The notes under the pieces were generated by a model, which was not told the origin of the DNA, searched no databases, and saw only the letters and a program-made list of their open reading frames with translations. Shown in pieces: positions 1 to 12,213 of a stretch of DNA of 12,295 nt. Made by a program: the position numbers and the translations under genes. The stretch lies in contig CAWDOY010000027.1 in the NCBI GenBank assembly GCA_963803975.1, positions 1-12,295 on the forward strand. The letters are read 5' to 3'. The DNA is from an uncultured delta proteobacterium (GTDB lineage Bacteria; Desulfobacterota; WTBG01; CAIYCZ01). The first letter of the stretch is position 1; each line of letters opens with the position of its first letter.

Positions 1-1
1 G

Positions 2-1255
2 CTTTTTTTATTTTTCTCGGACGCTGCCAGCGCTAATGATCTGAGGGGTTATTTCCCCTTGTATGATGGAAGGTTCTGGAATTTTACGGGATCACCGGAC
101 GGCACTACCTCAACCTGGGCGGTCAATGGAACGCTCTACGCTGAAAGATGTCGGGAGGGTGACTCTGCTGGCGCTTGATAACGGCAGCTTCCTCTGCCTG
201 CGCGAGGACTGGGAGGGAATCCGTATATATGGAGAATATAGTTCTGATGAGTATCTCATTCCCGATAAGCCGCTGCTGTTTTTGCCCAGCGCTCTAAAAC
301 CTGCGGAACCGATTGAAGTATCAGTAACGCTTAAGAAATTTTCTGACCCGGAGGGAAATATTAATTTCAAAGAGACCGGAAAAATCAATCAGAGCATAAA
401 TTCATCCATAAAGAGTTTGAGGATGTGACCGTTTCCGGGCGATTATTTAAAAATTGCGCTGTTGTTGAAAAAATTACCAGGGAGCAGAATACGGTGACCG
501 CGGAGACGATATATCTGGCCCCCGGCGTCGGCCCGGTCAAAAGGGTCCTCTTGAAAGGGAAGGAAAAAGTTGTTTATATCGTCAGCTCCTTTGCGGGTAG
601 TGATACGGTTGCAGCTGAAAATTTTCCCCTGAAGGCGCTGCTGCCGTTTAAACCGGGCATAACCTGGACCTATAGGGACCAGAAGGGAACTGTCTGGCGG
701 ACTACCACAAAAAACAAAGAACCCGTTCAGGGCACGGCGAGCCTGCCATTTGCTGAAGAAACCGGGGATATTTATTATTACACTCTTGACAACCGCGGAC
801 TGTTATTGACCCAGAAGTACTGGTCCCTGGTGGGCGGCTGCACTGATTTTCGCGCGCCGGATGCTCCGCTGGTGGTATTTCCGCCCACATTAAAACTGGG
901 GGCCTATTATTCATCGATATCCAATGCAAGCGTTCATACCTGGCCGAGCATGACGCTGATGGAAGATTTTTATCCGGAGATGCTCTGTGCAAGCATAGCT
1001 GTTTTAAAGGAAGATGTGACGGTCCCCGCAGGGAAATACCGGGATTGCCTGAAAGTATGCCTTTTCTCCGTGTCAAGAAACTTCAACATGAATAATGAGC
1101 AGGTCCGGATCGGTTATATATGGCTTGCGAAAGATACGGGCGTTATCAAGAAAAAGCTGGTCGACATGACCAACTATTTTAACCCCCAGCGAATAAACAG
1201 GATCACCTCCATCAAGTTCTGGGACTTAACGAAAATAGATAAAAAGGGCAGTTAG
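2..1255 (+). CDS. Secreted protein with two tandem DUF3108-like repeats; 5' end outside the window; split by two apparent frameshifts (~137 and ~416-418)
   Basis: Frame +2 from nt 2 reads LFLFFSDAASA|NDLRGYFPLYDGRFWNFT (end of a signal peptide, A-x-A site). It continues in +3 (TLKDVGRV...PDKPLLFLPSALKP) and returns to +2 (EDVTVSGRLFKNCAVV...IYLAPGVGPVK). The second half repeats the motifs: LLPFKPGITWTY, APLVVFPPTLKLG, EDVTVPAGKYRDCLKV, IWLAKDTGVIK. Joins track ORFs 63..428 and 425..1255. Confidence 0.7.
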
Positions 1256-1300
1256 CCGCGCATTCCCCGCCCCCCAAAAAGAGTGCTCAACACTGCTAAC

Positions 1301-1333
1301 AAGCGGGGAACTCAAACCGTTCCCGCTTTTTTT
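1301..1333 (+). terminator. Rho-independent terminator
   Basis: AAGCGGGGAAC-TCAAACC-GTTCCCGCTT stem (one bulged G) running into a T7 tract, 45 nt after the stop at 1255. Confidence 0.8.
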
Positions 1334-1338
1334 CGATT

Positions 1339-1355
1339 GCATAAAATATTTATGC
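1339..1355. promoter_or_regulatory. Perfect palindrome, candidate transcription-factor operator
   Basis: GCATAAA-ATA-TTTATGC, ending 7 nt upstream of the predicted -35 of the flavodoxin cluster. Confidence 0.4.
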
Positions 1356-1362
1356 CTCACAC

Positions 1363-1391
1363 TTGATAACCCGGCAGTTGTGTGATAGGAT
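1363..1391 (+). promoter_or_regulatory. Putative sigma70 promoter of the flavodoxin-like cluster
   Basis: TTGATA (1363-1368), 17-nt spacer, TAGGAT (1386-1391) with extended -10 TG. RBS AAGGAGG at 1465-1471. Confidence 0.5.
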
Positions 1392-1426
1392 TCGGTAGTA
1401 TGCTTTAAAACTACTACAGCTGCCGG
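1371..1426. repeat. Inverted repeat straddling the promoter
   Basis: CCGGCAGTTGT (1371-1381) pairs with ACAGCTGCCGG (1416-1426), 11 bp with one G-U. Inner GTAGT/ACTAC stem. Confidence 0.6.
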
Positions 1427-1475
1427 CTGGTAACTGAAACAATGACAAAACAGTAAAAAAGCTGAAGGAGGCGTT

Positions 1476-2084
1476 ATGAAGAGAAGCTGCAAATTCCTGC
1501 TGGCGTGCACTGTTGCCGCGCTTATTTTCACCCTGCCACTTGCGTATGCCCAGGAGAGCGGTGCGGGGAAAATCCTTATCCTGTATTATTCCCGGACCGG
1601 CAATACCAGAATGACCTGCGAGGCATTGCAGAAGGCTTTGAATGCACAAATGCTTGAGATCAAAGATTTGACAGACCGTTCAGGCTCCTGGGGCGGGCTT
1701 ACCGGTATGCTCAATACCCTGTTTAATATGGAAACCGGCATTGAGCCTGAGCATCCGGATCTTTCTTCCTACGCAAATATTATACTTGCATCGCCACTCT
1801 GGGCAGGGAAATTTGCTCCGGCAATCCGGACCGTAATCGCACGCAACAAATTCGACAAGAAAAATGTTGCTGTCCTCACGACCGGCAATGCCCTGTTAGA
1901 TCCGGCAAATCAGGAAAAGAATAAAGCCCCCATTATTGCCACGGGCGGTAACGTGGTTGGTTATTTTCAGGTTGCCGTGCAGGAAAAGGTAAATGATAAA
2001 AAGGTGGACCGGCCAAAGGAAAAAGTTATGGAGGATACGCTCAAACTGGTCCCGGAAATCAAAAAGGCTTTTAACCTGCCATAA
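1476..2084 (+). CDS. Exported flavodoxin-like protein 1 (Sec signal peptide)
   Basis: Signal MKRSCKFLLACTVAALIFTLPLAYA|QE. FMN phosphate loop YYSRTGNT, IILASPLWAG, VAVLTT. Strong RBS. Confidence 0.85.
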   Translation: MKRSCKFLLACTVAALIFTLPLAYAQESGAGKILILYYSRTGNTRMTCEALQKALNAQMLEIKDLTDRSGSWGGLTGMLNTLFNMETGIEPEHPDLSSYANIILASPLWAGKFAPAIRTVIARNKFDKKNVAVLTTGNALLDPANQEKNKAPIIATGGNVVGYFQVAVQEKVNDKKVDRPKEKVMEDTLKLVPEIKKAFNLP

Positions 2085-2114
2085 ATAATGACTAGGAAAA
2101 CACGGAGAAAAACT

Positions 2115-2736
2115 ATGCGTTATATTAGTTCCTTATTCACTGCAGCCTCCCTGCTCATTGTTCTTGCTGTTCTCTCAGCACCCCTGAGCGAAGCTTTTTC
2201 ACAGGAAAACCCCGTGAACAAAACATTAATTCTGTACTATTCCCGCACCGGCAACACCAGGCTGTGCAGCGAAACATTGCAGAAAGCTCTGGGTGCAGAC
2301 GTGCTGGAAATAAAGGATCGTAAAAATCGCGCCGGCGGATGGGGCTTCTTCACCGGGGCAGTCGGTTCGTTGTTCAACGTGCACACTACAATTGAGCCGG
2401 CACATCCCGACCTCTCAGCCTACAGGAATATTATCATCGCATCCCCAATCTGGACCGGCACGCTTTCCACCGCGATCCGCACCCTAATCGACGACAACCG
2501 GTGGGACGGTAGAAGTGTGATGCTGTTTACTACCACCAATGCCGCGGAAAAAGAAAAGTATATCGAAAAAAGCAAAGCACGCGTTGCACAGCGGGGCGCG
2601 CCGGTGGCTCGGCTACTGCCAGGTTGTGGTAAAAAAAGAGGTGGCCGGAAAAAAAGTTGATAGACCAAAGCAGGAAATCATTGAAGACACGCTCAAGTTT
2701 GTCCCGGAAATCAAAAAGGCATTTTCTCTTCCCTGA
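2115..2736 (+). CDS. Exported flavodoxin-like protein 2; one extra base at ~2607 shifts the frame
   Basis: GGAG RBS at 2104-2107 before ATG 2115. Signal MRYISSLFTAASLLIVLAVLSAPLSEAFS|QE, YYSRTGNT, IIASPIWTG. The C-terminus GYCQVVVKKEVAGKKVDRPKQEIIEDTLKFVPEIKKAFSLP (track ORF 2539..2736) is collinear with paralog 1 once one G is removed. Confidence 0.82.
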
Positions 2737-2791
2737 CTAAAAGTGCCGTAACTACCACACACAGCATTACACACAAATAAAGGAGGACAGT

Positions 2792-3442
2792 ATGTTTCAC
2801 AGAAGCTCTGGTCGGACGTTATTGATATCAAACGTACTGATGTTGTCCCTGATGTTCGTCTTGCTCCTGACGATGACCGGCAGGGACACGGTCAGCGCAC
2901 AATCAGCCCCGCCGGCGGCAGCAGTTGCAGTGCACGGCTCAAAGCCGCTGATCATCTATTATTCCCTCACCGGTAAAAATAAAATTATTGCAGAAGAACT
3001 GAAAAAGCAGTTTTCCTGTGATATGGGAGAAATCAAACTAGCCTCTGAGCGATCAGGTATCTGGGGTTTTATAGTCAGTGGATACGAGAACATATTTGAT
3101 AAAGATGCGGAGCTGCAGCCGTTTGCCATGGATTTGGCATCCTACAATCCGATCATCATCTGCGCACCCATATGGATGCAAAAGCTGTCTTCGCCGGCCC
3201 GGACCTTCTTGAAAAATCCGGCCCTCAAGGGAAAGGAGCTCTATATTTTTGCATCATTTCAAGGCCGCTGGGGCGAGGATAAAGAGGCGGAGCTGGTAAA
3301 AAATCTGACCGGGACGGGGATCGACGTCAAGGGTGTTTACCGGATGGTGCTGGGCAAAAAAACCGAGGAAGAGATAAAAAAAGAGGTTATAGCCCAGCTG
3401 GAGAAAAAGCCTCTCCTCAAAAAAGAGACACCTGCTTCGTGA
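2792..3442 (+). CDS. Exported flavodoxin-like protein 3 (more divergent)
   Basis: RBS AAGGAGG. Hydrophobic leader ending VSA|QS, then an Ala/Pro linker. Altered P-loop YYSLTGKN. RSGIWGF loop shared with paralogs (RSGSWGG, RAGGWGF). IICAPIW. Confidence 0.8.
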   Translation: MFHRSSGRTLLISNVLMLSLMFVLLLTMTGRDTVSAQSAPPAAAVAVHGSKPLIIYYSLTGKNKIIAEELKKQFSCDMGEIKLASERSGIWGFIVSGYENIFDKDAELQPFAMDLASYNPIIICAPIWMQKLSSPARTFLKNPALKGKELYIFASFQGRWGEDKEAELVKNLTGTGIDVKGVYRMVLGKKTEEEIKKEVIAQLEKKPLLKKETPAS

Positions 3443-3460
3443 TTTAAATTGCGGTAGATA

Positions 3461-3510
3461 ACAAAAAAGCCGCACAGAAGGATAAGAGGGGGCAAATCCT
3501 TCCGGCGGCT
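3461..3510 (-). terminator. Putative terminator for the minus-strand unit
   Basis: AGCCGC/GCGGCT plus GAAGGAT/ATCCTTC stems preceded on + by A6 (3463-3468), i.e. followed by a U tract on the - strand. Confidence 0.5.
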
Positions 3511-3554
3511 CACGAACCTCCGGTCTCCCGGAGGAGCATGTTCATGATCACCAG

Positions 3555-3607
3555 GGGGAGCGTATCTGCCGGCATTGGTCAGGCATACACGCTTCCCGCA
3601 GTTTTTT
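3555..3607 (+). terminator. Putative terminator for the flavodoxin cluster
   Basis: GGGGAGCGT...ACGCTTCCC extended imperfect hairpin, followed after 4 nt by T6 (3602-3607). Confidence 0.5.
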
Positions 3608-3613
3608 GCAGCC

Positions 3614-3937
3614 TTATTTTGCTGCTTTTTTCTTGGCAGCGTATACTTTAATCTTCTCGGCAGTATTGGTACCTTCTTTGAGGATCACCTTAACCTTATC
3701 CCCCTGCTTTAAGGTGGCAATCTCCTTGGGATCTACCACGACTTTCTTTTCTGCGTTGGTCGTTTTCTCTTTAATTACTACTTCATTCTTTGCCGCATCA
3801 ATGGAAACGATCTCACCCTTTACCACCTCGGCTTTAGCCTTTGGCGCCGGTGCTTTTGCTTCCTCTGCTGCAAACCCCACTGCAGAAAAACTGATCATGA
3901 CCAGTCCCGCTACTAATACCATCAGTATCTTTTTCAT
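3614..3937 (-). CDS. Small exported Lys-rich OB-fold-like protein (107 aa)
   Basis: AGGAGG RBS 10 nt before ATG 3937. Signal MKKILMVLVAGLVMISFSAVGFA|AE. Pattern VKGEIVSID...VVIK...LKQGDKVKV is typical of small periplasmic OB folds (DUF1344/DUF5666/CusF-like). The mature part has no His, Met or Cys metal ligands. Confidence 0.8.
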   Translation of the reverse strand: MKKILMVLVAGLVMISFSAVGFAAEEAKAPAPKAKAEVVKGEIVSIDAAKNEVVIKEKTTNAEKKVVVDPKEIATLKQGDKVKVILKEGTNTAEKIKVYAAKKKAAK

Positions 3938-3976
3938 CTCGCACACACCTCCTTTCTTATTATAATTAATGCACGC

Positions 3977-4023
3977 ACAATAGCATAGCTATAATTAAAT
4001 AAAGATTAGAAGCAGATTAGAAA
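3977..4023 (-). promoter_or_regulatory. OmpR-type tandem direct-repeat box overlapping the -35 position, plus extended -10
   Basis: On -: TTTCTAATCTG CTTCTAATCTT TATTTAATTAT (11-bp period, 4023-3991), then TG-C-TATTGT (-10 at 3982-3977). No consensus -35. Confidence 0.6.
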
Positions 4024-4026
4024 ATT

Positions 4027-5514
4027 CTAATGGTTGGAAGCGAGTGCGGGCAAAGAGATGATAAAGGTCGTACCCCTGTTCAGGCTGCTCTCTGCTGAAA
4101 TGGTTCCCTGGTGTGCTTCTACAATGGATTTGGCAATGCTTAAGCCAAGGCCAAACCCGCTGCTGCTGCGCGCCTTATCCACCCGGTAAAAGCGATTAAA
4201 AACATGGGGCAGTTCCGTGGCCGGAATGCCGATGCCGGTATCCTGTACGGTAATGTGCACCATATCCGCTGCTGCAGGGGCAGCTGACACCGACACTGCT
4301 CCATGCGGCGGAGTATATTTTATGGCATTATCCAGGAGGTTGAGAAAAACCTGCTTCAGCTTCTGCTCATCTCCCGGTATCATGAGGGCCTCATCTGCCA
4401 GGAGGGTAAGCGACAGGGATTTTTCGCGGGCCAGGCCAGCCATGTCTTCCACTGCTGCCCGCAGTACCCGCTGCAGATTAAACTCCTTGACGTCAAGTCC
4501 TGTTGTTTGATCTTCGACGCGGGCCAGCAGTAATAAATTTTCCACAATGCTGCTGATCCGCCGTATCTCCTCCAGGCTGCTTTCCAACACCTCTTCATAC
4601 TCAATAACCGGGCGGATTCTTTTCAGGGTCACCTCCAGCTCGCCTTGTAAAATAGTCAGCGGCGTCTTCAGCTCATGGGATGCATCCTGAATAAAGTGTT
4701 TCTGGGAGGAGAATGCCTTCTCCAGCCGGTCAAGCATGTCGTTAAACGTTGCAGCCAGCCTTTCAATCTCATCCCGGGTGCCGGGCATCTGGATGCGCAA
4801 TTTAAGATTCTCGGCAGTGATTTTCTGTACCGTCTTTATGATTCGATCAACCGGATTGAGGGTAATTTTTGCCAGAAACGCACCAATGATACCGGTAACA
4901 AAAATGGCCAGGGGCAGCAGTACAAAAAGTATTTCCTTAAAGTCATCAAGCGCCCCCTGTATGGTATCCAGAGGACAGGCCACCTGCACGATATACATGA
5001 TGTCCTTATCCTGAAAAACAGGCTTGGTCAAAACCCGCACGTTGAGATCTACGGCGTCGGGAAATACAAAGGTGGTGGTATCAAAGCGGTGTGTTCCCTG
5101 CAGGGCGGTGGTAAAAAAATCCCGGGAAAATTTAATATTGGCGGGGATATTTTTTGAGGAAACCAGAATGGTGCCTTTTGCGTCAAAAATCTGCACGATA
5201 ATATTCAACAGCTCAGGCGCGTTGGATTCTTCATCGACCCAGAGCCGCGCAATTTTTGAAAAATTAACAATATCAATTTTTTTTACGGCATCGGTCTTTT
5301 TCCCTGCCTTTTTTACCTGCAGTTTTTCAACTTCCCAGTAGGTATCAATGGAATCCTCAATGCCCTCCGCCCGGGATTGCAGCAGGTTATCAGCATTGCG
5401 GTACAGGTCATTCTGTAATTTATTATAGAGCACTATGGTGAACACGGTAATCGTCAGCGTCAGCAGTACCATGTACAGCAGAATGATCTTAAACCGTATG
5501 GTGCGGAACAGCAT
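4027..5514 (-). CDS. Membrane sensor histidine kinase (2 TM, HAMP, HisKA, HATPase_c; CusS/CzcS-like)
   Basis: Two hydrophobic helices. HAMP RDEIERLAATFNDML, H-box DASHELKTPL, N-box NLLDNAIKYT, G1 DTGIGI, F-box FNRFYR, G2 GFGLGLSI. Confidence 0.95.
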   Translation of the reverse strand: MLFRTIRFKIILLYMVLLTLTITVFTIVLYNKLQNDLYRNADNLLQSRAEGIEDSIDTYWEVEKLQVKKAGKKTDAVKKIDIVNFSKIARLWVDEESNAPELLNIIVQIFDAKGTILVSSKNIPANIKFSRDFFTTALQGTHRFDTTTFVFPDAVDLNVRVLTKPVFQDKDIMYIVQVACPLDTIQGALDDFKEILFVLLPLAIFVTGIIGAFLAKITLNPVDRIIKTVQKITAENLKLRIQMPGTRDEIERLAATFNDMLDRLEKAFSSQKHFIQDASHELKTPLTILQGELEVTLKRIRPVIEYEEVLESSLEEIRRISSIVENLLLLARVEDQTTGLDVKEFNLQRVLRAAVEDMAGLAREKSLSLTLLADEALMIPGDEQKLKQVFLNLLDNAIKYTPPHGAVSVSAAPAAADMVHITVQDTGIGIPATELPHVFNRFYRVDKARSSSGFGLGLSIAKSIVEAHQGTISAESSLNRGTTFIISLPALASNH

Positions 5515-5520
5515 ATAGCA

Positions 5521-6186
5521 TCAGTCCTTTATCATGTAGCCCCTGCCGCGGATTGTATGGATCAGCTTTTTTTCGTACCCCGAATCAATCTTATTGCGCA
5601 GGTAGTTGATATACACATCGATGATATTCGTGCTGGTATCAAAGTCAATCTCCCAGACATGCTCGGCAATCATGGTCCTGGTAACCACTTTCGCGGCATT
5701 CCTCATGAGATATTCCAGCAGTGCATACTCTTTCATGGTCAGAACGATCTCGTGGCCGCTGCGCGCTGCCGAGTGGGCCGCCACATCAAGCACCAGGTCC
5801 CCCGCCTGCAGCCTGGTCTCATGCCTCACGCCCTTTCGCAGCAGGGCACGGATGCGCGCCTGCAGCTCTGCAAAGGCAAACGGCTTGGTCAGGTAATCAT
5901 CCGCCCCGGAATCAAGGCCCTTCACCTTATCCTGCACCGCGTCTTTGGCCGTAAGCATCAGGACCGGTGTAGCTATGCCATCGTGGCGCAGCTGCCGGCA
6001 CAGCGTTATGCCGTCTTTTTTAGGAAGCATAACATCAAGGATAATGAGGTCATACTCGTTTTCCGCTGTCAGCCGGTAGCCTTCTTCACCATCAAAGGCC
6101 GTATCAACCGTATATCCTTCTTCTTTGAGACCCCGCTTGATGAAGGAAGCAATTTTACGTTCATCTTCAATGACGAGTATGCGCAT
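5521..6186 (-). CDS. OmpR/PhoB-family response regulator (CusR/CzcR-like), 221 aa
   Basis: True start is most likely MRILVIEDE (ATG 6186). Phospho-Asp in ILDVMLP, LTAKD, GADDYLTKPF. wHTH end IIDVYINYLRNKID...HTIRGRGY. Confidence 0.95.
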   Translation of the reverse strand: MRILVIEDERKIASFIKRGLKEEGYTVDTAFDGEEGYRLTAENEYDLIILDVMLPKKDGITLCRQLRHDGIATPVLMLTAKDAVQDKVKGLDSGADDYLTKPFAFAELQARIRALLRKGVRHETRLQAGDLVLDVAAHSAARSGHEIVLTMKEYALLEYLMRNAAKVVTRTMIAEHVWEIDFDTSTNIIDVYINYLRNKIDSGYEKKLIHTIRGRGYMIKD

Positions 6187-6225
6187 CAATAATACCCTCA
6201 GGTATGTGTAATCGTTGGAACCAGC

Positions 6226-6277
6226 CCGGCACTGTTCTGCGCCGGTGCTTTTTGCGAAAATAGCAGAGCAGCGCCGG
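6226..6277. repeat. Inverted repeat straddling the response-regulator promoter
   Basis: CCGGCACTGTTCTGC (6226-6240) versus GCAGAGCAGCGCCGG (6263-6277), 13/15 Watson-Crick complementary. Confidence 0.6.
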
Positions 6278-6285
6278 AAAATCAA
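6257..6285 (-). promoter_or_regulatory. Putative sigma70 promoter of the two-component operon
   Basis: On -: TTGATT, 17-nt spacer, TATTTT with extended -10 TG. Confidence 0.45.
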
Positions 6286-6307
6286 AGCAAAGTTGAAGAC
6301 AAAGGGA

Positions 6308-6336
6308 TTGACAGGAGAGGAAAAATTGGTAAAGAT
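6308..6336 (+). promoter_or_regulatory. Putative sigma70 promoter of the bcd-etf operon
   Basis: Consensus TTGACA (6308-6313) then TGG-TAAAGAT at 16-17 nt spacing. Divergent from the regulator promoter. Confidence 0.55.
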
Positions 6337-6347
6337 GAGAAATTCGT

Positions 6348-6382
6348 AGCTATCAGCATTCAGCCGTTCGGCTTTCAGCTAT
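6348..6382. repeat. Degenerate heptamer tandem repeat in the bcd leader
   Basis: AGCTATC AGCATTC AGCCGTTC GGCTTTC AGCTAT. Confidence 0.5.
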
Positions 6383-6404
6383 ATTAAAATAAAAGATTCT
6401 ATTT

Positions 6405-7553
6405 ATGGACTTTGAACTAACCAAACAGCAGAAGCTTGCCCGGCACGTGGCGCGGGAGTTCGCTCAGCAGGAGCTTGAACCCCGCGCCCAGGAACTGGAT
6501 ACAACCATGGAGTTCCCCCGGGACGCCGTGCAGAAAATGGCTGGCCTCGGGTTCATGGGGATTTCCATCCCGAAAGAGTACGGCGGCGCGGGGCTTGACA
6601 CCGTGAGCTATACCCTGATCATTGAAGAGCTTGCCCGGGCCTGCGCATCAACCGCCATAATCGTTGCCGTGCATAACTCGGTATGCGCCTATCCCATACA
6701 TCTCCTCGGCACTGAAGAGCAGAAACAGAAATACCTCATCCCGCTTGCCCGGGGCCAGAAGCTTGGCGCCTTCGCGCTCACCGAGCCGAATGCCGGCTCA
6801 GACCCGGCATCGATGGAAACAACCGCTGAGCTGCGGGGCAAACACTATATCCTGAACGGCACCAAAATATTTATCACCAGCGGCAGCAGCTCTGACATCG
6901 TGATGGTCATGGCATCAACCGACCGCGCGAAAAGGGGTCGGGGTATCACGTGCTTTATCGTAGAAAAAGGGTTGAAGGGATTCTCAGTTGGCAAGAAGGA
7001 GGATAAGCTCGGCATACGGGGATCTGACACCTGCGAGCTTATCTTTGAAAACTGCGCGGTGCCGGCTGAAAATGTCCTGGGCAGCCCGGGAGAGGGGCTC
7101 ACCAGCGCCCTCACCACACTTGATACCGGGAGAATCGGCGTCGGGGCGCAGGCTCTGGGAGTTGCCCAGGCAGCTCTCGACGAATCCGTCAGATACAGCA
7201 AAGAGCGCAAACAGTTCGGAAAACCGATAGCGGATTTCCAGGCCATCCAGTGGATGATCGCTGACATGGCGACTGAAATCGCCGCCGCACGGTTTCTCGT
7301 GCACCGGGCAGCGTGGCTCAAGGACCAGGGACGGCCGTTTTCAACCGAAGGCTCCATGGCCAAGCTCTATGCCTCTGAGGTTGCCATGCGCGCCGCTTTA
7401 AAAGCGGTCCAGATTCACGGCGGCTACGGATGCATGAAAGACTACAAGGTTGAGCGCTTTCTGCGCGATGCCAAGGTAATAGAAATTTACGAAGGCACAT
7501 CTGAAATCCAGCGGCTTATTATCGCGCGCAACGTAATAGGCAAAAGAATTTAA
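6405..7553 (+). CDS. bcd: Acyl-CoA dehydrogenase, short-chain/butyryl-CoA dehydrogenase type
   Basis: [49 protein letters not shown], catalytic Glu in [10 protein letters not shown]. Followed by etfB/etfA. The exact substrate cannot be read from the sequence. Confidence 0.92.
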
Positions 7554-7565
7554 ATCCTGACCAAA

Positions 7566-7697
7566 TAAGTTCAAATGTCAAAATCCAAATGACAAATAAA
7601 GTTCAAATACTAAAATAAAACCCAAATTTTATAAGGAGCATTTGATCATTTGAGTTTTGATATTCATTTGGCATTTGAACTTTGGCCTTTGTCATTT
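7566..7697. repeat. Inverted pair of heptamer arrays (CAAAT-rich left arm, ATTTG-rich right arm)
   Basis: Left: TAAGTTC AAATGTC AAAATCC AAATGAC AAATAAAGTTC AAATACT. Reverse complement of right: AAATGAC AAAGGCC AAAGTTC AAATGCC AAATGAATATC AAAACTC. Both have the same 7-7-7-7-11-7 register. Confidence 0.75.
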
Positions 7698-7743
7698 ATA
7701 TCTGGTTAGAATACGTGTTTAGATTTTTTTCGGAAAAATATAG

Positions 7744-8549
7744 ATGCCCAGGAAGAAAGACCTCCACATCATTGTGACCATAAAGCAGGTCCCGGACACC
7801 CACGAGGTGCGGATCGACCCGAAGACCAACTCCCTCATCAGGGAAGGGGTCCCGAGCATCGTCAATCCGGAAGACCGGAATGCGGTTGAGGCGGCTCTGC
7901 ACCTCAGGGAAAAGCACGGGGGCAGCATTACGGTGCTGACCATGGGGCCGCCCCAGGCAGAAGACGCCCTTGCCGAGGCCATTGCCATGGGAGCTGACCG
8001 GGCAGTGCTTCTTACCGACCGCGCGTTTGCCGGCGCTGACACCCTGGTCACGGCCTTTACCCTGTCGCGGGCAATCCGCAAACTTGACGCGTTCCAGCTC
8101 ATCATCTGCGGCCGCCAGGCAATCGATGGCGATACCGCGCAGGTCGGGCCGCAGCTGGCAGGGTTTTTAAATATCCCCCAGGTGACCTACGCAACAAAAC
8201 TCGCGCTGAAAGACAGCATCCTGACCGCTGAGCGCTCTCTTGAGGACACCATGGAAACCGTACAGGTAAAGCTGCCGGCGCTTGTTACCGTGACGGGAGA
8301 GGTCAACCAGCCCCGGCATCTGTCCTTATATAATATTATAGATGCCTGCTGCGGCACTAAAATCACCCGCATGCAGGCAAAAGACCTTGACGTGCCCCAT
8401 GACATGCTTGGTCTCTCCGCTTCGCCCACCTGGGTGAAAAAATCTTCTCTCCGGAGCAGCAGAAAAAGGGGATGATAATTCCCGGCACTGAGAAAGAGAT
8501 GGTAAAAACCCTGCTCGCAAAGCTGAAGGAGCTGAACTTTATCCAATAA
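7744..8549 (+). CDS. etfB: Electron transfer flavoprotein beta subunit; one A missing in the run at 8437-8442
   Basis: IKQVPDT, NPEDRNAVEAAL, TMGPPQA, DRAFAGADT, GRQAIDGDTAQVGP. Adding one A gives SPTWVKKIFSPEQQKKGMIIPGTEKEMVKTLLAKLKELNFIQ* (TAA 8547-8549). Confidence 0.93.
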
Positions 8550-8554
8550 TTATG

Positions 8555-8671
8555 CTCCCCTCCTTACCAAGGAGGGGCTGGGGGAGGTATCTTCTCCCCT
8601 CCTTGCCAAGGAGGGGTCGGGGAAGGTATCGTCTCCCCTCCTTACCAAGGAGGGGTTGGGGGAGGTCTTTC
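8555..8671 (+). repeat. Three tandem 39-bp palindromic (REP-like) repeats
   Basis: Units start at 8555, 8594 and 8633. Consensus CTCCCCTCCTT-RCC-AAGGAGGGG-YYGGGGRAGGT plus a 5-nt linker. 9-bp stem CCCCTCCTT/AAGGAGGGG. Confidence 0.95.
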
Positions 8672-9034
8672 ATGACAAGGCTCTTTAACAGAACCGCGGA
8701 AAAAGAAAAAAGAAGAGCATTGCGAAATGACATGCCGGAGCCGGAAAAACGAATCTGGGCACGACTTAGGTCCAGACAGGTCAATGGTTATAAATTTCGG
8801 AGACAATACAGCATTGGAAAATTTATAGTAGATTTTTACTGTCCCGAAAAAAAGCTTGCGATAGAAATTGACGGGGATTCTCATTTTACGCAAGAGCTAA
8901 GACCGTATGATGCTGCGCGGCAAAAATATATCGAATCTCAGGGAATTCATTTTTTACGTTTCACTAACAAAGATATTACTGAAAATGTTGACGGGGTGCT
9001 TGTGCATATAGCAGCATCCCTCAAGCATGAATGA
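8672..9034 (+). CDS. DUF559 (Vsr-like PD-(D/E)XK) endonuclease-domain protein, 120 aa
   Basis: RRALRNDMPEPEKRIWARLR, FRRQYSIGKFIVDFYC, LAIEIDGDSH, YDAARQKYIESQGIHFLRFTN. GGAGGT (from repeat 3) lies 5 nt before ATG 8672. Visibly more AT-rich than the etf genes. Confidence 0.9.
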   Translation: MTRLFNRTAEKEKRRALRNDMPEPEKRIWARLRSRQVNGYKFRRQYSIGKFIVDFYCPEKKLAIEIDGDSHFTQELRPYDAARQKYIESQGIHFLRFTNKDITENVDGVLVHIAASLKHE

Positions 9035-9037
9035 TTC

Positions 9038-9071
9038 ACCCCCTCCTGCTCCCCCTTGAAAATGGGGAGAG
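9038..9071 (-). repeat. Inverted, diverged copy of the palindromic repeat directly after the DUF559 stop
   Basis: ACCCCCTCCTGCTCCCCCTTGAAAATGGGGAGAG matches the reverse complement of unit 3 at 23/34 positions. It keeps its own stem CTCCCC..TT-GAA-AA..GGGGAG through two compensatory pair changes. Confidence 0.7.
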
Positions 9072-9084
9072 ACCTAAATGATCT

Positions 9085-9157
9085 TTCCCCTCCTTACCAA
9101 GGAGGGGTTGGGGAAGGTCTTTCTCCCCTCCTTACAAAGGAGGGGTTGGGGGAGGTC
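9085..9157 (+). repeat. Two further direct copies of the palindromic repeat
   Basis: Units at 9085 and 9123 (38-bp spacing): TTCCCCTCCTTACCAAGGAGGGGTTGGGGAAGGT and CTCCCCTCCTTACAAAGGAGGGGTTGGGGGAGGT. Confidence 0.95.
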
Positions 9158-9195
9158 GTTAATTTTAACTCTGTGCTGGTTTCATTGTGTAAGCC

Positions 9196-10379
9196 ATGAT
9201 TAAACTGATCCCCGAAAAATGCGTAGCGTGCAAGCAGTGCGTTAAGATCTGCCCGTTCGGCGCAATACTGCTTGAAGGCAAAACCCCGGTACTGACCGAT
9301 GCCTGCACCGGATGCGGGGCATGCGTGGACGCGTGCCGCTTTGAAGCTATTATCCTCTCTGCTAAAAAAAGCCCGGGCATGAAACATCTCGACTCCTACC
9401 GGGGCATCTGGGTTATAGCCGAGCAGCGCGACAGCACCGTCCATCCAGTCACACTTGAGCTGCTGGGAAAAGCGCGCGAGCTTGCGCAGCTGCGCTCAAC
9501 CGGGGTTGCGGCAGTTCTTCTGGGCAGTGGCATTTCCGCACTGCCACCGCTTCTCATCCGCCATGGCGCTGACCTGGTCTATACCGGCGATGCGCCGCTT
9601 TTGAAGCATTACCGCACCCTGCCCTACGCGCGCATCATCGCTGAGCTCATTGTAGAGCGCAAGCCGGAGACCGTGCTCTTTGGCGCCACCACCATGGGAA
9701 GGGACCTTGCGCCCCGGATCGCCAACCGGCTCGGCACCGGCCTCACCGCGGACTGTACCGGCCTCGAGATAAGCACTGAAGACGGCGCACTCCTGCAGAC
9801 CCGGCCCGCGTTTGGCGGCAACATCATGGCAACCATCGCCTGCCCCGGCCACCGCCCGCAGATGGCAACCGTGCGGCCCGGCGTGATGCAGGCGCTGTGC
9901 ATACCTGAGCGGACCGGGCAGACAGTTCCCGTTGAAGTGAAAGAAAAACCAGGAGACAGTCTTCTTGAAATTATCAAGCGCGTGAAAAGAGCGCTTGCAG
10001 CACGGTAGAGCTGGAAAAAGCCCAAATCATTGTCTCAGGCGGCAGGGGACTGGGTGCAGCGGGGAACTTTAAGTTAATAAAAAAACTGGCTGCTGTTTTA
10101 GAGGCCGAGGTCGGCGCTTCGCGGGCAGTGGTGGATATGGGGTGGATCAACCGCGATCATCAGGTCGGCCAGACCGGAAAAACCGTGCGCCCGATCCTCT
10201 ACATTGCCTGCGGCATCTCCGGCGCGGTGCAGCACCTTGCCGGCATGCAGAGCTCTGATATCATTGTTGCCATTAATAAAGACCCCAAGGCCCCCATCGT
10301 CAGCGTTGCGAACTTTGCCCTCATCGGCGACCTGAACCGCATCATACCTGAGATGATTAATCAACTGCAAAGCAAGTAG
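9196..10379 (+). CDS. etfA: Electron transfer flavoprotein alpha subunit with N-terminal 2x[4Fe-4S] ferredoxin domain; one base missing near 9985-9988
   Basis: [12 protein letters not shown] and [36 protein letters not shown]. After the shift: [16 protein letters not shown]...[12 protein letters not shown]...[11 protein letters not shown]...[12 protein letters not shown]...AINKD. Joins track ORFs 9196..10008 and 10128..10379. Confidence 0.93.
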
Positions 10380-10392
10380 ATTGCTACGTCCC
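10318..10392 (+). repeat. Left copy of a 75-bp direct repeat (etfA 3' end plus 13 nt downstream); attL-like
   Basis: 70/75 identical to 12139..12213. Confidence 0.95.
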
Positions 10393-10393
10393 T

Positions 10394-10586
10394 GTGTACT
10401 TGCTGGTGAGAGAATTTCAGGGGATACGGTTAACTGAGCTGGCAGAAATGATTAGACGCGACCTTTCCAGCTTGAGCATTGCGGCAAGCCGGATTGAAAA
10501 AAGAGCCCAAACGGATAAAGCGCTGGCACAAAAGCTGGTTCATTTCAGAAACAAATTCTTAAATCAATATTGTTAAGCCTGACCCC
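10394..10586 (+). pseudogene. 3' remnant of a Y1/REP-associated tyrosine transposase (C-terminal DnaA_C-like HTH) with terminal GCCTGACCCC motif
   Basis: LLVREFQGIRLTELAEMIRRDLSSLSIAASRIEKRAQTDKALAQKL resembles the HTH tail of long RAYT-type transposases (recognised from memory). It ends TGT TAA GCC TGA CCCC. No HUH/Y1 catalytic part and no RBS; it begins at the direct-repeat edge. Confidence 0.6.
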
Positions 10587-10628
10587 AATTTCAATAGTGT
10601 TGCCCGAGAATACGGAGGGTTCAATAGC

Positions 10629-12119
10629 ATGAGCGAGAAGCAGCGCATCTTTATAAGCTCCGTACAGAAAGAATTTGCGACTGAACGCCGTGCTGTTCGT
10701 GATTTTGTTGATGGCGATGCGTTGTTACGGCGCTTCTTTGATGTCTTTCTGTTTGAAGATTTGCCTGCATCTGACCGTCGCGCTGATGATGTTTACCTGG
10801 CCGAAGTGGACCGTTGCGACGTGTATATCGGGCTTTTCGGTAACGACTACGGTTCTGAGAATGCCGATGGTTTGTCTCCGACTGAGCGTGAATTTGAGAG
10901 AGCTACCATAGCGGGCAAGCAGCGTCTGATTTTTGTCAAAGGCATAGTCGATACAAAACGGCACCTTAAAATGCAGGCGCTTATCCGACAGGCCGGAGCC
11001 CAGCTCATCCGCCGCCGCTTCGCTACAACCGCCGAACTGATCGGATCGGTGTACGCAAGTCTTGTTGACTCTCTGGAGGTTCAGGAACTGATCCGCACCG
11101 GGCCGTTTGATGCCACGTTCTGCCGCAATGCTGTTTTATCTGACCTCTCGGAAGAACGGATCAGCCTGTTCCTGCGCCATGCCCGCAAAGCCAGGGGATT
11201 TCCCTTGCCGGAAGAGGCTGAACCCTTAGAGGTTTTGACCCATCTGAATCTGCTTGATGACGGACGCCCTTCCCATGCCGCGGTTCTGCTGTTCGGAAAA
11301 CAACCCCAGCGTTTTCTGATTTCTTCGGAAGTCAAATGCGCGCACTTTCATGGAACGGACGCAGCGAAACCGATTCCGTCCTATCAGGTGTACAAGGGAA
11401 CAGTCTTTGACCTCGTTGATCAGTCTGTGGATTTCGTCATGTCCAAGATCAATCTGTGGGTAGGCACCCGCAAGGACAGTCCCAGGCACCGGTGGAATAT
11501 GAAATTCCCCGTGAGGTGGTAGCCGAGGCTATTGTAAACGCGGTGGCGCACCGCGACTACACCAGCAACGGCAGTGTACAGGTGATGCTTTTCGCCGACC
11601 GTCTGGAGGTCTGGAACCCCGGCACGTTGCCGCCTTCGCTCACACTGCAGAAACTGCGTGAACCGCATGGTTCGATCCCCGCCAATCCGCTCCTGGCTGA
11701 GTCGCTGTATCTTACCAAATATATCGAGCGCATGGGCACCGGCACGCGTGATATGATTAAACGCTGCAGGGCTGCCGGACTGCTGGAGCCGGAGTTCTCG
11801 CTGCCTGACGGGTTTGTCGCTACTATTCGTCGCAGGGTCCGGGCAAGTCACAGGGCAAGTCACAGGGCAAGTCACAGGACAAGTCACAGGACAAGTCACA
11901 GAAGAAATTCAACGCATTGTCCTTGTTGTACGCGGGGAAATGTCGCGTAAACAAATACAGGATATACTGCAATTAAAAGGGCGCGCAAACTTTGAAGAAC
12001 GGTATTTGAAACCAGCGATAGAAACAGGTTTTATCGAACCGACCATCCCTGATAAACCTCAAAGCCGTCTCCAGAAATACCGACTCACGGAGAAAGGCCG
12101 CGCAGTGCTTAAGAAATAA
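10629..12119 (+). CDS. DUF4062 + HATPase_c_4 (RecG C-terminal-like) + C-terminal winged-HTH protein; two apparent frameshifts (~11481-11483 and ~11835-11840)
   Basis: RIFISSVQKEFATER...YLAEVDRCDVYIGLFGNDYG...SPTEREF (DUF4062). EAIVNAVAHRDY, DRLEVWNPG, NPLLA, IERMGTG (HATPase_c_4). GQVT linker. YLKPAIETGFIEPTIPDKPQSRLQKYRLTEKG (Fic-associated wHTH). GGAGG RBS at 10614-10618. Joins three track ORFs. Confidence 0.85.
11841..11900 (+). repeat. Coding 12-bp tandem repeat x5, (GQVT)5 linker
   Basis: GGGCAAGTCACA x3 then GGACAAGTCACA x2. Confidence 0.95.
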
Positions 12120-12138
12120 GAAAGCATGATTGCCGAAA

Positions 12139-12213
12139 CCCTCATCGGCGACCTGAACCGCATAATACCTGAACTGATTAATCAACTGCAAAGCAAGTAG
12201 ATTGCTGTGTCCC
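12139..12213 (+). repeat. Right copy of the 75-bp direct repeat; attR-like orphan etfA 3' end
   Basis: Encodes [19 protein letters not shown] versus [19 protein letters not shown] in etfA. Confidence 0.95.

Follow-up and report, generated by a model that had tools for sequence, protein, structure and literature searches.

DUF559 genes are common and are usually annotated as encoding repair enzymes. One of them, Caulobacter vsrA, must be present for a cytosine-methyltransferase mutant to mount its SOS response (PMC12907096). Very-short-patch repair of T:G mismatches has been put forward as a hypothetical role of its product, and over-expression of VsrA failed to induce SOS (PMC12907096).

BoxC/PIT/TM repeats, or intrastrand triplex motifs, have been known since the 1990s; they occur in hundreds of genomes and have been linked to genome instability (PMC4666352). 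The main text of Holder et al. names neither a function for them nor an enzyme that spreads them (PMC4666352). Triplex formation in single strands was demonstrated for TMECO oligonucleotides only, and the triplex was found neither in duplex DNA nor by in vivo footprinting, according to the same text (PMC4666352). Two further systems combine a dedicated gene with repeats or with host recombination. REP/REPIN repeats are accompanied by RAYT, an IS200/IS605-related HUH (Y1) tyrosine transposase (PMC3116915), and the homing endonuclease I-Bth0305I is encoded by a selfish nuclease gene copied through host recombination (PMC3239194). Here we analyzed a locus in which a DUF559 gene is bounded by repeats and compared it with these systems.

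Results

Layout of the locus

The window, that is, the whole stretch of 12,295 nucleotides analyzed here, is the entire contig C27 of an uncultured delta proteobacterium. Positions 1-10392 match C9:5245-15647 of the same host genome (G000) at 95.6-96%. The two copies come either from different strain haplotypes or from a segmental duplication. The C9 copy carries a 2+1+2 array and a frameshifted DUF559 gene. In the window, repeats and gene follow the order >>> gene < >>, five of the six units being direct and one inverted, as an earlier reading of the sequence alone (the sequence-only reading) had described. That reading was also right in seeing an AT-rich gene between etfB and etfA: both flanks carry ETF domains (Pfam), and the GC content is 0.39 at 8701-9000 versus 0.56-0.67 within etfB/etfA. 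The features are the following, the repeat units being named after the motif class to which we assign them below.

7744..8549, + strand: etfB, left-flank host gene (Pfam ETF, 1.3e-46)
8557..8589, + strand: triplex motif unit 1, with a 9-bp stem, a 3-nt loop and a second 3-nt loop (mirror strand 9/9)
8596..8628, + strand: triplex motif unit 2 (mirror strand 8/9)
8635..8667, + strand: triplex motif unit 3, inner left end; its tail carries GGAGG
8672..9034, + strand: DUF559 nuclease gene, 120 aa, 39% GC (E25, D54, E65, D67, H71, D80)
~9037-9072, - strand: inverted triplex motif unit 4, inner right end, with a CTCCCCCTT-type stem, 8/9 pairs and a mirror tail
9038..9119, no strand given: units 4+5, an outward-facing doublet; gene-less doublets lie on C10, C48 and C57 (~75%), and that on C49 is more diverged
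9087..9119, + strand: triplex motif unit 5 (mirror strand 7/9)
9125..9157, + strand: triplex motif unit 6 (mirror strand 8/9)
9166..9182, + strand: remnant arm of a second palindromic family (CTCTGTG...GGT type), both arms of which fill the cassette-free allele of G002 and G003
9196..10379, + strand: ferredoxin-fused etfA, right-flank host gene (Pfam)

As assembled, etfB ends at 8475; with one A restored near 8436, its stop falls at 8547-8549, and the additional A is present in contigs from 4 runs. A second frameshift lies in etfA near 9995, where run X1, the sole informative run reaching it, has two fewer bases. Because both frameshifts are missing from independent contigs, they are likely assembly errors. 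The DUF559 gene and both inner ends were recovered in independent short-read contigs (471 bp, 3 differences). Small shares of RNA runs gave one 202-nt piece over the DUF559 gene, with 23 differences.

The cassette of the window appears to be nested between the arms of the second palindromic family. This family, ACCRCAGAG...CTCTGYGGT, has 8 matches in the host genome and occupies the empty etfB-etfA gap at two loci (L085, L086). Similar repeats presumably flank GxxExxY nuclease genes and would then represent a parallel system. The window has further repeats and genes. An AT-rich imperfect inverted repeat at 7558-7690, in the gap between an acyl-CoA dehydrogenase gene and etfB, matches C25 and C43 and is another repeat family within the same operon. 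A 1.8-kb insert at 10393-12213 is missing from C9; a 75-nt stretch of the etfA 3' end is directly repeated at its two edges (93%), and it contains a DUF4062 / HATPase_c_4 / Fic-like_C gene split over three frames as well as a 12-nt tandem repeat at 11841-11900. Three tandem paralogues at 1476-3442 encode exported flavodoxin-like proteins with a common YYSxTG motif.

The repeat units

Each direct unit is 33 nt long and consists of a perfect 9-bp stem, CCCCTCCTT-NNN-AAGGAGGGG, followed by a G-rich tail. In full, a pyrimidine arm is separated by a 3-nt loop from its purine complement, and another 3-nt loop leads to the mirror of that purine arm. This mirror relation between tail and purine arm is absent from the sequence-only reading; in the five direct units, 7 to 9 of the 9 positions are compatible with G*G-C, A*A-T or T*A-T triplets. 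The window units are predicted class II intrastrand triplex motifs (BoxC/PIT/TM). The palindromic stems described earlier stand, and what has to be amended is the class, in that the repeats belong to one that was already known. They do not match the TMECO consensus, CCCTCNCCC-N3-6-GGGNGAGGG-N3-GGGNGAGGG, their stem being CCCCTCCTT, and because of this difference we regard them as a sister subtype. Other copies in the host genome do fit the TMECO consensus (C5, C37 and C54).

Unit 4 begins 3 nt past the TGA of the DUF559 gene (9032-9034). Its stem had been taken for a copy of the direct unit preserved by compensatory changes, and this did not hold up: it belongs to another subtype and has 8/9 pairs; solo copies with this stem on C10, C48 and C57 are perfectly paired.

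At 97 representative loci, the mirror is conserved as a relation and not as letters. A perfect 8/8 mirror was found just 3' of 137/354 hairpin calls from these loci, counted on both strands, versus 2/354 at a control offset. Within the 4.25-Mb host genome, the exact window palindrome has 14 copies (5 solo and 9 next to one or other of the two DUF559 copies), and a hairpin-plus-tail detector gave 15 matches versus 0 in the reversed genome. The repeats are thus no product of chance. The genome has 57 motif calls of several subtypes, many of them in inverted doublets.

Gene and motif across phyla

The sequence-only reading had proposed that the repeats are enriched beside DUF559 genes, and a lack of association across genomes would have spoken against it. 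We found the enrichment across phyla, in three sets of loci. Among the best 80 of 375 confirmed homologous loci (49-91% identity), which come from cyanobacteria, Patescibacteria, Nitrospinota, Chloroflexota, Bacteroidota and others, a motif lies <=150 nt from the gene in 74 and on both sides of it in 52. The ends are inverted in 49 of these 52 doubly flanked loci, 36 facing inward and 13 outward. Motif density in the same best 80 of 375 is 7.1 per kb near the gene versus 0.096 per kb beyond 600 nt, these loci not being independent of one another. Only 4 motif calls in 98.7 kb were obtained at etfB loci without the DUF559 gene (n = 28). In the second set, obtained from 151 gammaproteobacterial genomes with the family model, 26/30 loci have a motif <=150 nt away, and 15/16 doubly flanked ones are inward facing. 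In the third set, found with ycjD, a motif is present at 44/54 loci outside E. coli.

The strict detector, which demands a perfect 7-bp stem, found a motif at 0/28 E. coli-like ycjD loci. It misses the K-12 TMECO, which the published consensus finds, and also the degenerate units visible at the Synechococcus PCC 7002 and Neisseria loci. No motifs were found at DUF559-like domains within large proteins (L131, L140 and L141). At the level of whole genomes, a TMECO-type motif occurs in 24/33 DUF559-positive versus 17/117 negative gammaproteobacterial genomes, a count of related, nonindependent genomes that leaves out G077. Speaking against a strict link, three motif-rich gammaproteobacterial genomes have no detected gene (G091 with 31 matches, G093 with 45 and G134 with 23), and in four genomes of the host class (G022, G030, G032 and G034) the gene went undetected beside 19-43 overlapping matches.

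Repeat sequence was further expected to co-vary with DUF559 phylogeny, and it does. We built a tree of 97 representatives, dereplicated at 85% from 163 intact matches, on 120 columns, in which many forks are unresolved. The AGGAGGGG arm accompanies 34/56 window-clade and 1/35 ycjD-clade representatives, and the GGGAGAGGG arm accompanies 1/56 and 26/35, respectively, six rows of two small clades being excluded. The subtype label changes 12 times on the tree, versus a minimum of 25 changes in 500 shuffles. Window-clade carriers of the AGGAGGGG arm fall under 11 NCBI phylum labels, and one genome with both clades (G014) has each with its own subtype (L116 and L135). Counting against this, the host genome carries several motif subtypes and a single gene clade. 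Overall, these data show that gene and ends travel together. Since subtype matching is also expected from joint inheritance, it is no proof of recognition.

The nuclease and its relatives

The 120-aa protein matches PF04480 with an E value of 1.5e-32 (112 bits versus a cut-off of 20.6, model positions 4-108 of 109). The GGAGG at 8661-8665, in the tail of unit 3, lies 6 nt 5' of the ATG and is likely the ribosome-binding site. An upstream in-frame ATG at 8552 could extend the protein by 40 repeat-encoded residues. Across 8552-8671, the three left units are in frame with the nuclease and encode (LPSLPRRGWGR)-like repeats; the motif is therefore translatable without a stop.

Residues E25, E65, D67 and H71 are present in 97/97 sequences, and D54 and D80 in 95/97. 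The dN/dS ratio was 0.08-0.27 in 10/11 pairs, the eleventh, a near-identical pair, giving 0.67 on 7 changes. The predicted active site is intact and under selection. The closest match to the predicted structure (pLDDT 87) is 3HRL, an unstudied DUF559 structure (E 6e-8), followed by the catalytic domain of the homing endonuclease I-Bth0305I (PDB 3R3P; E 3.8e-4; TM-score 0.64/0.78), with Vsr far behind (E 0.47). Pfam, PDB sequence and fold searches returned only DUF559 or Vsr-like matches and no resemblance to an HUH transposase. The Vsr-like PD-(D/E)XK fold hydrolyzes DNA without strand transfer. Having this fold and not the HUH fold, the protein would thus lack strand-transfer chemistry. The spacing of D54-H71-D80 equals that of D196-H213-D222 in I-Bth0305I (PMC3239194).

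The Vsr-like fold named by the sequence-only reading stands. Its statement that the family has no defined substrate needs amending, since a role in mismatch repair has been proposed in print for one DUF559 protein, VsrA (PMC12907096). VsrA residues E73, D102, D115 and H119 are spaced like E25, D54, D67 and H71 of the window protein. The VsrA result shows that the DUF559 family damages DNA in vivo, which is compatible both with a repair enzyme and with a selfish nuclease. As a separate observation on this gene, a LexA box lies 133 bp within the annotated Caulobacter vsrA open reading frame (PMC12907096), and there is a 48-codon offset between the catalytic residues of VsrA and those of the window protein. 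Because of these two facts, the true start of vsrA may lie just past the LexA box, which would place the gene directly under SOS control.

In E. coli K-12, ycjD is the only DUF559 gene (38% identical). A TMECO lies 168 nt 3' of ycjD, and a degenerate inverted unit overlaps its stop. We counted 23 TMECO patterns in K-12, the number reported in the main text of Holder et al. (PMC4666352); with 23 in 4.64 Mb, the chance of finding one <=200 nt away is ~0.004. An intact TMECO lies across the ycjD 3' end in two other strains. In five E. coli strains with ycjD, one copy being a pseudogene, 9-29 TMECO were counted, versus 1-12 in five that lack the gene at this site, a trend confounded by phylogroup; the genome-wide absence of ycjD was checked in 2 of the latter 5. 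That TMECO are retained in strains lacking ycjD at its site counts against a role of the gene in spreading them. A clean empty site in E. coli was looked for and rejected, as strains without ycjD have a TetR-efflux island there.

The best surviving alternative is that DUF559 is a host-selected repair nuclease, either Vsr-like or a resolver of the motif, that the motifs spread by other means and that the gene is semi-domesticated like RAYT. The SOS role of VsrA in a methyltransferase mutant and its proposed very-short-patch repair (PMC12907096), with the matching residue spacing, agree with this, as do the purifying selection on DUF559 and the presence of ycjD at one site in 3,376/5,426 E. coli genomes (62%), which counts against mobility. 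The mismatch activity of VsrA is a hypothesis (PMC12907096). No cytosine DNA methyltransferase was found among the 57 NCBIfam-named of 101 neighbor open reading frames (44 are unnamed), nor among the scanned open reading frames of the window, both searches concerning linked genes. A repair role is also difficult to reconcile with the patchy presence of the gene (19/41 relatives), with up to 9 matches per chromosome and with identical dispersed copies, and mismatch repair leaves the inverted, subtype-matched ends unaccounted for. We thus consider a host repair function unlikely.

Mobility of the cassette

The cassette is present in 2/30 etfB-etfA loci, both within this genus. It is missing from 28/28 loci outside the genus (0/16 close orthologues and 0/12 distant ones), and one contig fuses 8549 (etfB stop) directly to 9196 (etfA start). 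Empty etfB-etfA alleles, as foreseen by the sequence-only reading, therefore exist, and the gene is not vertically conserved at this site. Another contig links a left unit to etfA, which is weak evidence, coming from a single contig with a 35-nt side. As one contig has a single upstream unit, the upstream units number 1, 2 or 3, and a contig joint that steps back 114 nt inside the left array fits additional tandem units. A dS of 0.30 to the nearest relative at the window site indicates long residence and counts against mobility.

Cassettes are also dispersed as near-identical copies. The complete chromosome of G043 has 9 matches to the family model, and five copies there are 82-100% alike. Two of its loci (L020 and L024) share 457 bp at 100% identity, with edges 6-7 nt beyond the tails, and dispersed copies are 93-97% identical in G189 and G067. 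Solo repeats and gene-less pairs, likewise anticipated, were found too: G020 has gene-less inward pairs with an 80-nt spacer and the same ends as the gene-bearing L118, L132 and L133. Housekeeping genes of unrelated kinds surround the cassettes, which in some cases split a pair such as fcl-gmd, and the gene is patchily present in 19/41 relatives. We are therefore confident that the unit made up of the DUF559 gene and its two inner, inverted ends, both triplex motifs, is mobile.

In 27 comparisons, 43 boundaries could be scored, leaving aside 11 further ones without a called motif. Of the 43, 25 fall in or <=12 nt from a motif, 11 beyond and 7 inside. We saw no target duplication: there is no shared-length duplication at L020 or L024, and the boundaries vary among the 27 comparisons. 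The gene had been described as bracketed as if by terminal inverted repeats, and the inverted ends are indeed there, but the precise ends of an insertion sequence are not supported, given the missing target duplication and the variable boundaries. Transposition of the insertion sequence type, with target duplication, was rejected, there being neither duplication nor fixed ends.

The DUF559 family is scarce on mobile replicons, with 33/72,556 plasmid records, many of which are chromids or chromosomes, and 2/50,697 phages. A phage or plasmid origin was rejected on these numbers and on two viral contigs, which match at 36% identity and are both motif free. This rarity counts against the mobile-unit reading. 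Cassettes are often centered on the axis of another palindromic repeat, including in the window. Triplex pairs are nested in several other repeat families at L142-L161 (G020 and G013) and L327-L332, and in G067 the inverted outer arms of the cassette copies, 70-90 nt long, differ from locus to locus.

The dispersal could also be explained by a passenger gene captured long ago by two recombinogenic motifs and moved by motif recombination or another enzyme, the protein ignoring the motifs. Decay or loss of the ends would be expected of such a passenger, but the active site is near-invariant and the ends are kept at 36-60% protein identity. One and the same gene family is the cargo across phyla, and the DUF559-like domains in large proteins (L131, L140 and L141) lack the motifs. 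Although motif-rich genomes without the gene, E. coli motif loci prone to rearrangement (PMC4666352) and motif pairs nested in other, possibly mobility-supplying, repeat families (G020, G067 and G189) would fit a passenger, we find this explanation improbable. More improbable still is that the units work in the transcript, as a ribosome-binding site, hairpin stabilizer or processing site, with no role in DNA movement: the GGAGG supplied by the unit 3 tail 6 nt 5' of the ATG and the frequent co-orientation of the gene within operons (fcl-gmd, mur clusters) would agree with it, but the conserved mirror fits a purine-motif triplex, impossible in RNA according to Holder et al. (PMC4666352), PIT elements are described there as being without promoter or terminator activity (PMC4666352), the ends face outward at 13/52 loci (best 80 of 375), a terminator scan gave 2 versus 1.3 expected by chance, and solo copies are left unaccounted for. 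A terminator or promoter role was likewise rejected, the scans being close to chance.

Discussion

We propose that the enzyme probably acts on the triplex motif, and on balance we favor a selfish unit whose nuclease would recognize the folded motif and nick beside it, with host recombination or repair then copying the unit. The motif would fold while the DNA is transiently single stranded, and the nuclease would recognize the folded form before nicking adjacent to it. Resident motifs or other palindromes would then receive a copy of the unit, or of motifs without the gene, through host repair or gene conversion. The non-autonomous products of this process would be seen as solo motifs, doublets and gene-less pairs, and the tandem units of the window may expand and contract by slippage or recombination. 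Tentatively, we suppose that the motif folds in transiently single-stranded DNA only and that the enzyme hydrolyzes and cannot rejoin; since it would not transfer strands, copying would proceed through repair or gene conversion and not by cut-and-paste. The data show the pairing of gene and motif, the orientation of the ends, the subtype matching, the dispersal and an intact enzyme, and from there binding of the motif, its cutting and the repair route are inferred. It is possible, and we say so with some reservation, that DUF559/YcjD is the missing mobilizer of the BoxC/PIT/TM repeats, a minimal element of ~450 bp in which a stand-alone Vsr-like nuclease would read a DNA triple helix as its end signal and spread both itself and triplex repeats without the gene across many bacterial phyla.

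If true, this would be the first natural bacterial enzyme dedicated to an intrastrand DNA triplex, and the elements would form a class of selfish element with a new end chemistry, in which a bacterial protein reads DNA triplexes. It would also offer an alternative reading of the Caulobacter VsrA result. The link between DUF559 and triplexes makes the old question of these repeats testable in E. coli K-12, where ycjD lies beside a TMECO.

The main text of Holder et al. contains neither "nuclease" nor "DUF" (PMC4666352), and that of the FLSHclust paper contains neither DUF559 nor Vsr. Our search of the literature, mostly of nonsubscription papers, returned no paper linking DUF559 or ycjD to triplex repeats. 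Both parts are known, and their union and its chemistry are undescribed in the literature searched.

Comparison with known systems

The repeats are closest to BoxC/PIT/TM, with which they share the 9-3-9-3-9 purine-motif class II design, the intergenic position, the inverted doublets and copy numbers that vary between strains (PMC4666352). They differ in the stem, CCCCTCCTT in the window and CCCTCNCCC in TMECO. In addition, the main text of the TMECO paper places no mobility gene beside the motif (PMC4666352), whereas here a nuclease gene is its consistent neighbor.

In organization, the DUF559 cassette is similar to REP/REPIN-RAYT, where a dedicated gene is likewise flanked by short structured repeats that form inverted doublets throughout the genome, co-vary with its clades and are mostly chromosomal (PMC3116915). 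RAYT is an HUH enzyme, and DUF559 has a Vsr-like PD-(D/E)XK fold. Furthermore, RAYTs are described as single copy and not self-mobile (PMC3116915), whereas DUF559 cassettes occur in identical or 82-97% identical dispersed copies, and their ends are triplex motifs, unlike those of REP/REPIN.

The closest characterized fold is that of the EDxHD enzyme I-Bth0305I (PMC3239194), and E25, D54, H71 and D80 are near-invariant in the DUF559 proteins. Unlike I-Bth0305I, DUF559 is a single domain of 120 aa with no NUMOD DNA-binding region, intron or intein, and its cassette is intergenic, repeat bounded and without a fixed target gene. With Vsr and VsrA, the latter itself a DUF559 protein, it shares a superfamily group and the catalytic residues (PMC3424549, PMC12907096). 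Unlike Vsr, the cassettes have no linked cytosine methyltransferase among their named neighbors and are patchy, multicopy and repeat bounded.

A gene within inverted ends, with gene-less derivatives that keep both ends, is also found in insertion sequences and MITEs (PMC2229807). Unlike these, the DUF559 unit has no transposase fold, neither target duplication nor TA ends were found, and its ends are GC rich and not fixed. Overall, the DUF559 unit resembles both REPIN-RAYT and a homing endonuclease, and it departs from each of these two, as from Vsr and from IS/MITE elements, in at least one defining respect.
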